From an uncultured virus (IMG/VR IMGVR_UViG_3300042485_000398) (taxonomy: Duplodnaviria > Heunggongvirae > Uroviricota > Caudoviricetes), in the IMG/VR virus record IMGVR_UViG_3300042485_000398, positions 62,001 to 117,295 of that record: 55,295 nt of DNA. One strand, 5' to 3'. Position numbers and translations under genes: made by a program. This document shows, piece after piece, positions 29,814 through 31,007 of the stretch. Position 1 is the stretch's first letter. Each line of letters begins with the position of its first letter. The notes under the pieces were generated by a model. That model made no database searches. It was not told where the DNA came from and saw only the letters and a program-made list of their open reading frames with translations.

Positions 29814-30419
29814 TTATCCTGCATAAAATATATGATCACCAATTTTAGCTACTCTACGAAGATTCCAACCTGGACTTACATAGTCGGCATGATAGAATAG
29901 AACATTTTTTCCTAATACGCCATGATTAGCCCCAGCGAACAATACCTTCTCAGCAACTTTCTTTGACTCAGCATATTGTTGCGCACTGCGGACACTCTTC
30001 TTTCCTTCGCATACCCATGAGAACTGACACACACGTTTTGTTCTCTGGTATACAACGGAGCATACGGATTTAGGAAACTTGGGGCTATTTACCCGATTGA
30101 TAGTGACAGCAGCAACGGCCAATTTGCCTTGAGTAGACTGGTTACCAGCCTCATAATAGATATTGTCTGCGAGACACTTCAATTCTCTGTTATTTGCCAG
30201 ACGAATATTTTGTGTCTGGATTCTTTGTTGTGTTACTTTACGTTGTTGTTCTTGGGCATCTTCTTTGATGTCCTGAATTACTTCTCCGACGCCGAGGGAA
30301 TATTCCCTTGCTTCTCTTTCGATGGCAGTTTCAGCATATGAATTAATTCCATATAAACTATAACTTAATAGTGTAATAATCGAAAGAAACTTGAAAAACT
30401 TCTTATTAAAGGAAGTCAT
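29814..30419 (-). CDS. Cell wall hydrolase (SleB/Hydrolase_2 family) with N-terminal membrane/signal segment
   Basis: CLADNIYYEA, VTINRV, CQFSW, FYHADYV.P.W and IGDHIFY motifs. Confidence 0.9.
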   Translation of the reverse strand: MTSFNKKFFKFLSIITLLSYSLYGINSYAETAIEREAREYSLGVGEVIQDIKEDAQEQQRKVTQQRIQTQNIRLANNRELKCLADNIYYEAGNQSTQGKLAVAAVTINRVNSPKFPKSVCSVVYQRTKRVCQFSWVCEGKKSVRSAQQYAESKKVAEKVLFAGANHGVLGKNVLFYHADYVSPGWNLRRVAKIGDHIFYAG

Positions 30420-30599
30420 CTTATTTCCATTTTTTTGTTATACTTGAGAGGGTATTAACCAGTGACTCCCCACACTGATTGTCCGAAGACAAAAAATAAC
30501 CCACTGTGCTTGCTGGTGTCAGGTCGCACAATGGGTCATACAACTATTTAGCATCCGTAGATTCTTACATCACTCATTTCATCGTATAAACCAAACAGG

Positions 30600-30970
30600 T
30601 GATAGTTTTATTCTGTTTCGAGGGAAAACTATCAAAAACCCAATGAGATTATGCGGCTAGCGCATATCCTGCAAAGGCAACGTTATCGTTTGCATTTACG
30701 TTTAGTGGCACTTTGCCAAGCAATCAGTCTCGAACCGCCCTATTACACGAAAATCGAATTCCAAGGTCACCCCCATCAACAAGAAACTCATCTAGGCAAG
30801 TACCGCAGCAAAAATCATCTTCTATTATACGCGCTCTTAAATCTTCTAGGTTAGTATACTGAGAGTCACGTATGTCACGACAACTGCAAATTACCATAAT
30901 TTCCTCTTGGTGGAGGTGCGGGGAGTCGAACCCCGGTCTTTCCGCCTTTATTGTTGATTGTCAACAACTG
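30600..30970 (-). ncRNA. ssrA: Circularly permuted two-piece tmRNA: acceptor piece ~30970-30908, intervening segment 30907-30775, coding piece 30774-~30600
   Basis: T-arm CGGGG-TTCGACT-CCCCG and CACCTCCA-CCA come first. 5' strand GGGGGTG comes later and pairs with a G3-U70 Ala determinant. Tag frame 30693-30649 = ANDNVAFAGYALAA*. Terminal hairpin GATAGTTTT...AAAACTATC. Outer ends approximate. Confidence 0.93.
30724..30897 (-). CDS. 57-aa Cys-rich protein, Bfd-like [2Fe-2S]/metal-binding, nested in the tmRNA precursor
   Basis: SD AGAGGA directly after the CCA, then MVICSCRDIRDSQYTNLEDLRARIIEDDFCCGTCLDEFLVDGGDLGIRFSCNRAVRD*; CxC...CxxC pattern. Confidence 0.6.
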   Translation of the reverse strand: MVICSCRDIRDSQYTNLEDLRARIIEDDFCCGTCLDEFLVDGGDLGIRFSCNRAVRD

Positions 30971-30976
30971 ATAATC

Positions 30977-31007
30977 TATTTATACACTAGTTTGCTTTGG
31001 AAGTCAA
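30977..31007 (-). promoter_or_regulatory. Composite sigma70-type and T4-late promoter for tmRNA
   Basis: TTGACT-17 bp-TATAAA, where the -10 box is part of an exact TATAAATA. Confidence 0.7.

Follow-up and report, generated by a model that had tools for sequence, protein, structure and literature searches.

A four-cysteine mini-protein gene within the intervening sequence of a permuted phage tmRNA

Introduction

The intervening sequence (IVS) that separates the pieces of a two-piece (permuted) transfer-messenger RNA (tmRNA) is usually regarded as discarded RNA. The stretch of DNA analysed here (the window; 55,295 nucleotides, positions 62,001 to 117,295 of the IMG/VR record IMGVR_UViG_3300042485_000398) is part of a 117-kb uncultured virus record with a completeness estimate of 71%. 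It carries on its minus strand a permuted tmRNA gene, and the 133-nt IVS of this gene opens an open reading frame (ORF) of 57 codons. Is this ORF a gene, what might it encode, and how could one transcript serve both as a message and as the precursor of a stable RNA? A preliminary description, made from the sequence alone, had taken the ORF for a relative of bacterioferritin-associated ferredoxin (Bfd) and its transcript for a message that RNase P would leave without a stop codon. Taken as a whole, the observations are probably best explained if the IVS of this two-piece phage tmRNA houses a genuine small gene that works in the manner proposed below, a conserved protein gene being found in this position in at least four divergent phage lineages.

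Selection on the nested ORF and its protein family

The same ORF was present in 17 of 78 close tmRNA relatives with a locatable acceptor end, in 6 distinct nucleotide versions and in an IVS of 133 or 134 nt; the other 61 relatives had unrelated IVSs of 28-122 nt without this ORF. Selection was analysed on 48 distinct nucleotide versions of codons 1-38. The entropy by codon position 1/2/3 was 0.975/0.702/1.429, and the median ratio of nonsynonymous to synonymous substitution rates (dN/dS) was 0.15 in 36 close pairs. Within the window clade, the proportion of synonymous differences (pS) was 0.05-0.50 and that of nonsynonymous differences (pN) was 0-0.054 (window type against locus L206: pS 0.32, pN 0.043). 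Because of the codon-position entropy, the low dN/dS and a pS far above pN, the ORF was taken to be a translated gene and not an RNA element; judged by these statistics, it is a genuine gene under purifying selection. The conservation with dN/dS below 1 for which the preliminary description had called was thus found both in the close tmRNA relatives and family-wide.

A word-based search returned near-identical proteins alone (P0001, with 15 members from 24 contigs, and P0002). Exhaustive HMMER searching of 1.84 billion proteins with residues 1-44 gave 38 cluster representatives that passed E<=1e-3; six also passed E<=1e-10. Members were 42-89 aa long, the exceptions being one protein of 163 aa (P0053, in which no Pfam domain was found) and one of 3397 aa without an aligned stretch; a search for longer or fused forms of the family had no match, though this negative is weak. 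Across 67 aligned sequences, C4, C6, R7, I9, D28, C31 and C34 were invariant and M1, L20, R23 and G32 nearly so, typical substitutions were conservative (V/I, D/E, R/K, Y/F), and residues past ~40 varied in length and sequence. The Cys motif first noted therefore stood as to C4, C6, C31 and C34, which are the ligand candidates kept, and not as to the adjacent C30, which is not conserved. By this alignment the proteins are an unnamed small-protein family with a core of four invariant Cys (CxC...CGxC), which annotation pipelines miss or call hypothetical, and by the origin of its matches the family is almost confined to uncultured phage contigs. The ESM Atlas contains the sequence and offered no usable neighbour.

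Layout of the permuted tmRNA gene

The window tmRNA scored above the gathering score of the covariance model RF04321 (Table 1), and its pieces stand in permuted order, with the acceptor piece and its CCA upstream, followed by a coding piece that starts with GGGG and holds a tag reading frame (30693-30649, minus strand) ending in ..ALAA and a stop. The coding piece begins GGGGGTG at 30774 (G1). The ATG of the ORF lies 10 nt downstream of the acceptor CCA, codon 41 ends at the boundary GAT|GGG, and the last 16 codons and the TGA fall within the coding piece (30774-30724), ending 30 nt short of the tag frame. By geometry read from the sequence alone, the stop lies 51 nt past the RNase P site. ARAGORN, Rfam and the sequence agree in this with the anatomy that had been described (CCA, 133-nt spacer, 57-codon ORF, 41 codons to GAT|GGG). 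The Cys pattern of the window ORF is C4-x-C6 ... C30-C31-G-x-C34.

The promoter-like site TTGACT-17-TATAAA stands directly before the Rfam model start, and transcription from it would be expected to begin at ~30972-30969. It was not listed by the consensus scan because its -10 hexamer ends in A. When the tmRNA region was compared with GenBank phages by blastn, the sole match was to 38 nt of Ruegeria phage RpAliso.

Table 1. Features of the permuted tmRNA gene and the nested ORF (window coordinates).
Feature	Coordinates	Strand	Basis
Permuted tmRNA, tag ANDNVAFAGYALAA	30558..31003	-	ARAGORN, one call
RF04321 tmRNA_permuted	30969..30649	-	Rfam, 95.8 bits vs gathering score 47, model positions 1-213
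Promoter-like site of tmRNA precursor: TTGACT (31007-31002), 17 nt, TATAAA (30984-30979)	30979..31007	-	By eye
Acceptor (tRNA-like 3') piece, 3' end ...CACCTCCACCA at 30908	30908..30969	-	Rfam RF04321 alignment, ARAGORN
IVS, 133 nt, CCA to G1 of coding piece	30775..30907	-	Sequence, Rfam; relatives L122-L126 identical here, spacer 133
Leader AGAGGAAATT with Shine-Dalgarno-like GAGGA (30906-30902); 5' strand of IVS stalk	30898..30907	-	Sequence, pairing tables
57-codon ORF and stop, four-Cys mini-protein; ATG 30897-30895	30724..30897	-	ORF call, homologues, selection
Conserved 41-codon ORF part, exactly filling the IVS; family domain ~residues 1-38	30775..30897	-	67-sequence alignment, AlphaFold 2 pLDDT
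3' strand of IVS stalk, GAGTTTCTTGTTGAT, codons 37-41	30775..30789	-	Pairing tables
tmRNA coding piece, 5' end GGGGGTGACC	30558..30774	-	ARAGORN, Rfam, sequence

Position of family members relative to tmRNA genes

The viral set consisted of the best 80 of 107 relatives from a family-alignment scan of viral contigs and held 47 distinct proteins. A same-strand permuted tmRNA was located by ARAGORN and Rfam at 34 of these 47 distinct versions. Eight of the versions lay inside the IVS (five window-clade versions, L218, L223 and L225) and 26 just upstream of the tmRNA. The 13 without a tmRNA above threshold included L238, which has a weak sub-threshold match, and L263 and L274, which begin 9-15 nt after ordinary tRNA genes. 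Versions outside the IVS (39/47) had ordinary stop codons.

A degenerate DNA pattern was derived from the invariant residues and recovered 44 of 48 distinct viral versions. Among prokaryotes (one genome per species, 185,579 species) it matched once, at L283, a free-standing gene on a gammaproteobacterial chromosome that lies among metabolic genes with no tmRNA nearby. The JGI metagenomes yielded 104 loci with 79 distinct domain versions, which are not independent of the viral set because of overlapping origin. Of these versions, 27 were upstream of a tmRNA, 5 in the IVS, 1 downstream (L371) and 1 hybrid (L308); 19 were in loci too short to judge, and 26 were without a tmRNA, one of them directly after a tRNA. 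Linkage to tmRNA was thus seen by ARAGORN, Rfam and inspection in 34 of the 60 metagenome versions with enough flank. At L371 (L371:1-400, in ORF orientation) the family ORF starts ~57 nt past the tag stop, within the ARAGORN 3' limit, so that by its sequence the gene also has a third position, on the immediate downstream side of a tmRNA. On this distribution the gene is an accessory that prefers the tmRNA locus, with a strong but not universal same-strand attachment.

Two freshwater metatranscriptome contigs, X2 and X5, contain close relatives of the tmRNA in which, at window 30778-30908, 129 nt are replaced by 74 others. Because these relatives carry another, 74-nt IVS, ORF-bearing and ORF-less forms were taken to co-occur in nature.

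The leader, the stalk and the codon boundary

The copies inside an IVS belonged to four lineages (the window clade; L218/L361; L223/L225/L319; L373), which mutually share 14-25 of 38 residues and have different tmRNA tags. All four had the same layout of CCA, a purine-rich leader of 10-12 nt (AGAGGAAATT, AAAGGAAATTCA, TAAAGAAATTGC and AAAGGGAATTCA), ATG, 41 or 45 codons, and G1, the IVS part of the ORF ending with a fixed 15-nt block, GAG TTT CTT GTT GAT or variants (GAT/GAA), directly before G1. The leader pairs with GAGTTT(T)CTT.. in all four lineages and ACCA with TGAT in three of them; in the window, GAGTTTCTTGT pairs with the leader and TGAT with ACCA. In each of the four, a predicted stalk of ~21 bp prolongs the 7-bp acceptor stem, and its loop contains the ORF.

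The first pair after CCA is A-U in the window and L218 and U-A in L223/L225, and because of this exchange the pairing of the stalk was considered conserved with compensatory change. ORF-less relatives make a stalk of the same kind from other letters (CCA-TAGACAC...GTGTCTA-TGAT-GGGG) and also end GAT|GGGG. Since they too build such a stalk, it is taken to be a property of the precursor into which the gene has been fitted. The Shine-Dalgarno-like bases form one strand of the stalk and would therefore be masked in the folded precursor.

The preliminary description had asked whether the Shine-Dalgarno sequence and the ATG are conserved, and had made much of RNase P cutting exactly between two codons. 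The ATG and a purine-rich leader were present in all four IVS lineages, and the Shine-Dalgarno sequence of L223/L225 was poor. The boundary GAT|GGG is exact, but is explained by the fixed, RNA-constrained 15-nt stalk strand, and because GAT precedes G1 in ORF-less IVSs as well, it was not counted as an independent sign of a designed non-stop message.

Rearranged relatives

At L220 and L229 the tmRNA, promoter and acceptor piece are very near those of the window and the protein is 66-73% identical, with the gene upstream. There the tmRNA promoter TTGACA-17-TATAAA lies within the last ORF codons and the stop (L220:1337-1368, L229:1320-1370), and TTGACA-17-TATAAA-tagattatcagttg precedes the acceptor piece. 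At several upstream-type loci a TATAAT-like hexamer was observed 0-2 nt ahead of the ATG.

The metagenome locus L308 (L308:620-889) starts with a first acceptor-like piece that has a 12-nt deletion in the T-arm region and the 3' end CCTCCACCA; next come the leader AGAGGAAACAAT, a family ORF that has a stop of its own, a promoter, and the first part of another acceptor piece. A more decayed acceptor remnant (GTGCAGGA..ACCC..GG) stands in front of the ORF at L229 and L231. By its order of elements, L308 looks like an intermediate between the IVS and upstream arrangements. The simplest reading of these loci would be that the order acceptor-leader-ORF is old in this subgroup, and that upstream copies may arise when a second promoter-acceptor unit lands behind the ORF and the first decays. 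A tree built from the 48 domain versions had support for 6 of its 44 inner branches; because this tree is not resolved, the protein being too short, one origin of the IVS location could not be distinguished from several.

Likeness to Bfd

The ligand order C-x-C ... C-x-x-C is kept across the 67 sequences and aligns with the Cys of E. coli Bfd. No member reached the Pfam Fer2_BFD cut-off (26 bits), and the window protein had no match at E<=10; Fer2_BFD was nevertheless the commonest weak Pfam match (5 of 39 members, best E 0.048). With hhalign, the probability was 34% for E. coli Bfd, with all four Cys aligned (MxxCxC, CGxC), and 25% for a little-varied alignment of 18 enterobacterial Bfd sequences, a 9-residue deletion being needed in both cases. 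Scored with a Bfd hidden Markov model, five members reached 10.4-16.7 bits; the highest of 1060 shuffles had 9.1. In Bfd, the Cys pairs usually lie ~30-35 residues apart. Here 24 residues separate C6 from C31, 9 fewer than in E. coli Bfd, in keeping with the shorter spacing that had been remarked on.

An AlphaFold 2 model had a short strand and two helices, with a mean predicted local distance difference test score (pLDDT) of 72.8 (~84 for residues 1-40, <50 for residues 44-54). From the sequences we infer a metal-binding mini-domain whose four Cys follow the ligand pattern of Bfd and may hold either [2Fe-2S] or Zn; membership in Fer2_BFD is weakly suggested. Of the likeness to Bfd originally proposed, the ligand order stands; the profile similarity is below threshold, with no Pfam match above cut-off.

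Like Bfd (PF04324), the proteins are small and start M-[hydrophobic]-[hydrophobic]-C-x-C, and the second pair C-G-x-C falls at a helix start. Unlike Bfd, the phage family is below the Pfam cut-off, has the shorter Cys spacing, and is attached to tmRNA genes. No bacterioferritin partner was seen. In the 117-kb record (71% complete) neither an SmpB gene nor a Fer2_BFD match was found.

Of 21 loci examined, 5 have a 2-oxoglutarate (2OG)-Fe(II) oxygenase gene no more than ~1.2 kb from the family gene (L241:444-1031, L236:1851-2516, L264:236-841, L275:2-328 and L283:810-1433); at the bacterial locus L283 the oxygenase (PF13759) is a divergent neighbour. The single 2OG-Fe(II) oxygenase of the window record is 68 kb off, and this neighbourhood was treated as a lead and not used as evidence. 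At L243 a rubrerythrin/ferritin-like gene lies upstream of the family gene.

Expression and proposed mode of working

The tmRNA promoter is the sole promoter-like site read before the ORF, and the precursor therefore very probably doubles as the mRNA of the ORF, as the preliminary description had supposed. An RNA-library contig (X1; 151 nt, 0 mismatches, 30768-30918) spans the whole IVS and extends 7 and 11 nt past its junctions, which is weak support for the nested gene.

In the mode of working proposed, the tmRNA promoter would give a precursor that also acts as the mRNA of the ORF and is translated unprocessed. Ribosomes would most likely load on the leader co-transcriptionally, before the 3' strand of the stalk, ~110 nt downstream, is made. 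They would read the 41-codon domain and then 16 incidental codons in the 5' end of the tmRNA, and terminate at 30726-30724. Once the stalk closed, the ribosome-binding site (RBS) would be masked, and RNase P and 3' trimming would free both tmRNA pieces. Because reading through G1 must transiently block formation of the acceptor stem, translation and maturation would compete on the transcript. The product would be a metal-binding mini-protein, its four Cys holding zinc or, as in Bfd, a [2Fe-2S] cluster. The tail, unconserved in the alignment and modelled with low confidence, would be dispensable. Our best guess as to its role is that the protein is made early, together with the phage tmRNA, as an accessory factor in redox or iron handling.

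Several points weigh against the nested gene and its proposed working. The putative RBS lies within a strong predicted helix (minimum free energy -47.7 kcal/mol for IVS and stem), the leader of L223/L225 (TAAAGAAATT) is without a good Shine-Dalgarno sequence, and one window-clade variant has AGAGTAAATT. The X1 contig shows no strand, ends or level and may reflect DNA carry-over; translation is what we infer. The protein had no significant match in Pfam, NCBIfam, PHROGs or, by sequence or by profile, the PDB. Foldseek against the PDB gave 0 matches and the wide VIA-align search a best Z of 2.4, which is noise level, the domain being very small for such searches. No family homologue was found in 50,697 GenBank phage records by tblastn with three members as queries. 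Of the family versions with enough flank, ~40% have no tmRNA nearby, and the gene was present in just 2 of 54 ARAGORN permuted tmRNAs (120 loci from an acceptor-end pattern), a weak association in this direction; the tmRNA can therefore do without the gene.

Alternative explanations

The protein may be a dedicated partner of the phage tmRNA, acting in its maturation or charging, in the use of SmpB, or in the fate of tagged proteins. This is compatible with the nested gene and its proposed working, and was considered rather unlikely. Same-strand contact upstream (L220, L241), inside the IVS (window, L218, L223, L373) and downstream (L371) speaks for it, as do the persistence of the linkage across alpha-type and beta-type tmRNAs with different tags and, at one locus (L263), a ClpP gene two genes away. 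On the other side are the rarity of the gene among the 54 sampled phage permuted tmRNAs, the 26 of 60 metagenome versions with enough flank that have no tmRNA, the copies beside ordinary tRNA genes (L263, L274, L331), and the cellular homologue L283, which lies among metabolic genes without a tmRNA; inherited synteny in related myophages could give the same linkage. At L263 (L263:399-2029), the ClpP protease gene, a tRNA-Thr, the family ORF (15 nt after this tRNA) and another tRNA, labelled Pyl by ARAGORN (anticodon CTA, suppressor-like), were observed in a row.

The circuit put forward in the preliminary description resembles that of ArfA: processing would free a stop-less 41-codon message whose product is tagged and destroyed, the protein would accumulate solely when trans-translation is saturated, and the locus would act as a feedback or iron-linked switch. 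The stop beyond G1 and the placing of G1 on a codon boundary, common to the four IVS-resident lineages, speak for such a circuit, as does a tail past ~residue 41 that is unconserved and of low model confidence. We nevertheless hold it to be improbable. Most members (39 of the 47 viral versions) lie outside the IVS and have ordinary stops, which makes it less likely that the family as a whole depends on a shortened product with a tag, and L308 follows an acceptor remnant and the same leader, yet has its own stop. The codon boundary comes from the fixed 15-nt stalk strand and is at best a 1-in-3 coincidence that was then inherited, and the Shine-Dalgarno sequence would still be paired in the excised IVS. 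As to the iron switch, no link of the locus to iron regulation was seen, and the 117-kb record, 71% complete, gave no SmpB gene and no Fer2_BFD match.

A broader form of this idea makes the IVS the ancestral home of the family and, beyond that, a built-in sensor of ribosome-rescue capacity. In it, a stop-less message of 41-45 codons, freed by processing, would yield a four-Cys product that is tagged and destroyed by way of the adjacent tmRNA and escapes only when trans-translation is saturated or blocked; the phage would thereby encode a logic like that of ArfA, with a metal-binding protein as effector. The unit of leader, ORF and stalk common to lineages with 14-17 of 38 identical residues, the apparent duplication intermediate L308 and the acceptor remnants ahead of upstream copies would fit this reading, to which a low probability was given.

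That the ORF is untranslated, its open frame and conservation being by-products of IVS RNA structure, is very improbable indeed: both IVS ends are constrained as RNA by the stalk, and a 41-codon open frame in 133 AT-rich nt is not very unlikely by chance, but third codon positions vary most, dN/dS is ~0.15, substitutions are conservative and the family also occurs free of tmRNA, including on one bacterial chromosome, so that codon statistics largely rule out an RNA-only explanation of the ORF.

Relation to known systems

The gene nested in the IVS, as preferred here, has counterparts of several kinds. In the accessible text of PMC11915505, homing-endonuclease ORFs are described in group I introns of tmRNA genes. 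Like those, the present ORF is a coding sequence within a part of a tmRNA gene that the mature RNA lacks; unlike them, it lies in the IVS of a permuted gene, which is freed by tRNA-processing enzymes and is not self-splicing. An intron-borne homing endonuclease was considered for the window and rejected: Rfam found the permuted tmRNA alone and no intron, and Pfam found no endonuclease domain in 39 family members. The same source, as far as its accessible text goes, gives a tRNA-Ala gene and a repetitive element as known contents of permuted-tmRNA IVSs. These too show that the IVS tolerates large functional insertions, but they are an RNA gene and a repeat, and here the insertion is a conserved protein gene.

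ArfA, according to the accessible text of PMC10107115, is expressed from a non-stop mRNA under tmRNA control. Common to both is a small ORF with a stop past an RNA-processing site, so that the product is potentially a trans-translation substrate. The two differ in that no sequence likeness was seen (no such Pfam match) and that most family members have normal stops.

In tRNA-mRNA co-transcripts, such as the tyrT-tpr and thrU-tufB operons of E. coli and the small ORFs of the T4 tRNA region, the mRNA is parted from stable RNAs by RNase P or RNase E. The present locus is like these in joining an mRNA and a stable RNA in one precursor, and some family members (L263, L274) start shortly after ordinary tRNA genes; it is unlike them in that the ORF lies between the halves of one RNA gene and has its RBS in the processing stalk of that RNA.

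A protein gene lying in the IVS of a permuted tmRNA was not found described in the accessible text of the two-piece and permuted tmRNA literature (PMC9004378, PMC11915505, PMC4131195, PMC5746245, PMC8541194), supplements aside, and an earlier mention is possible. ORFs nested in removed segments of stable-RNA genes are already known; the small-protein family is new. With an RBS built into the stalk that presents the ends of the tmRNA, the locus would offer a natural case of translation set against stable-RNA maturation on one molecule. The rearranged relatives, with the gene upstream, inside or downstream of the tmRNA or, at L308, beside a damaged second acceptor, are material on the reshuffling of permuted tmRNAs, and the finding bears on why phages carry tmRNA.

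Neighbouring genes and minor observations

The neighbouring genes in the window (a gp32-type single-stranded DNA-binding protein, a helicase loader, DNA methyltransferases, a cell-wall hydrolase, an exonuclease, PhoH and a carbamoyltransferase) point to a T4-like myophage, and the permuted ssrA gene is carried by this phage. A Hydrolase_2/endolysin-like cell-wall hydrolase gene lies directly downstream of the tmRNA (window 29814-30419, minus strand), and also at the distant relative L239 (L239:1845-2339).

At L301, L357, L369 and L362 (also L278-L281) the tags given by ARAGORN are unusually long, at 26-28 residues (for example ANVSTFKFWQSPVSVAANDEAFALAA and ATTSTFKFFEVPASVARAANAERFELAA), and in one long-tag tmRNA of this group DDCKSSKINTRNDEVFAMAA is followed by a double stop.

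Unrelated ORFs that start soon after the CCA were also seen in the long IVSs of other permuted phage tmRNAs: L106 (157 nt), with a 56-aa Cys-containing ORF (L106:116-283, minus strand) that was found at two further loci; L053 (107 nt), with a 28-aa hydrophobic peptide behind AGGAG (L053:737-820); and L049 (140 nt), with a 70-aa ORF (L049:731-940).

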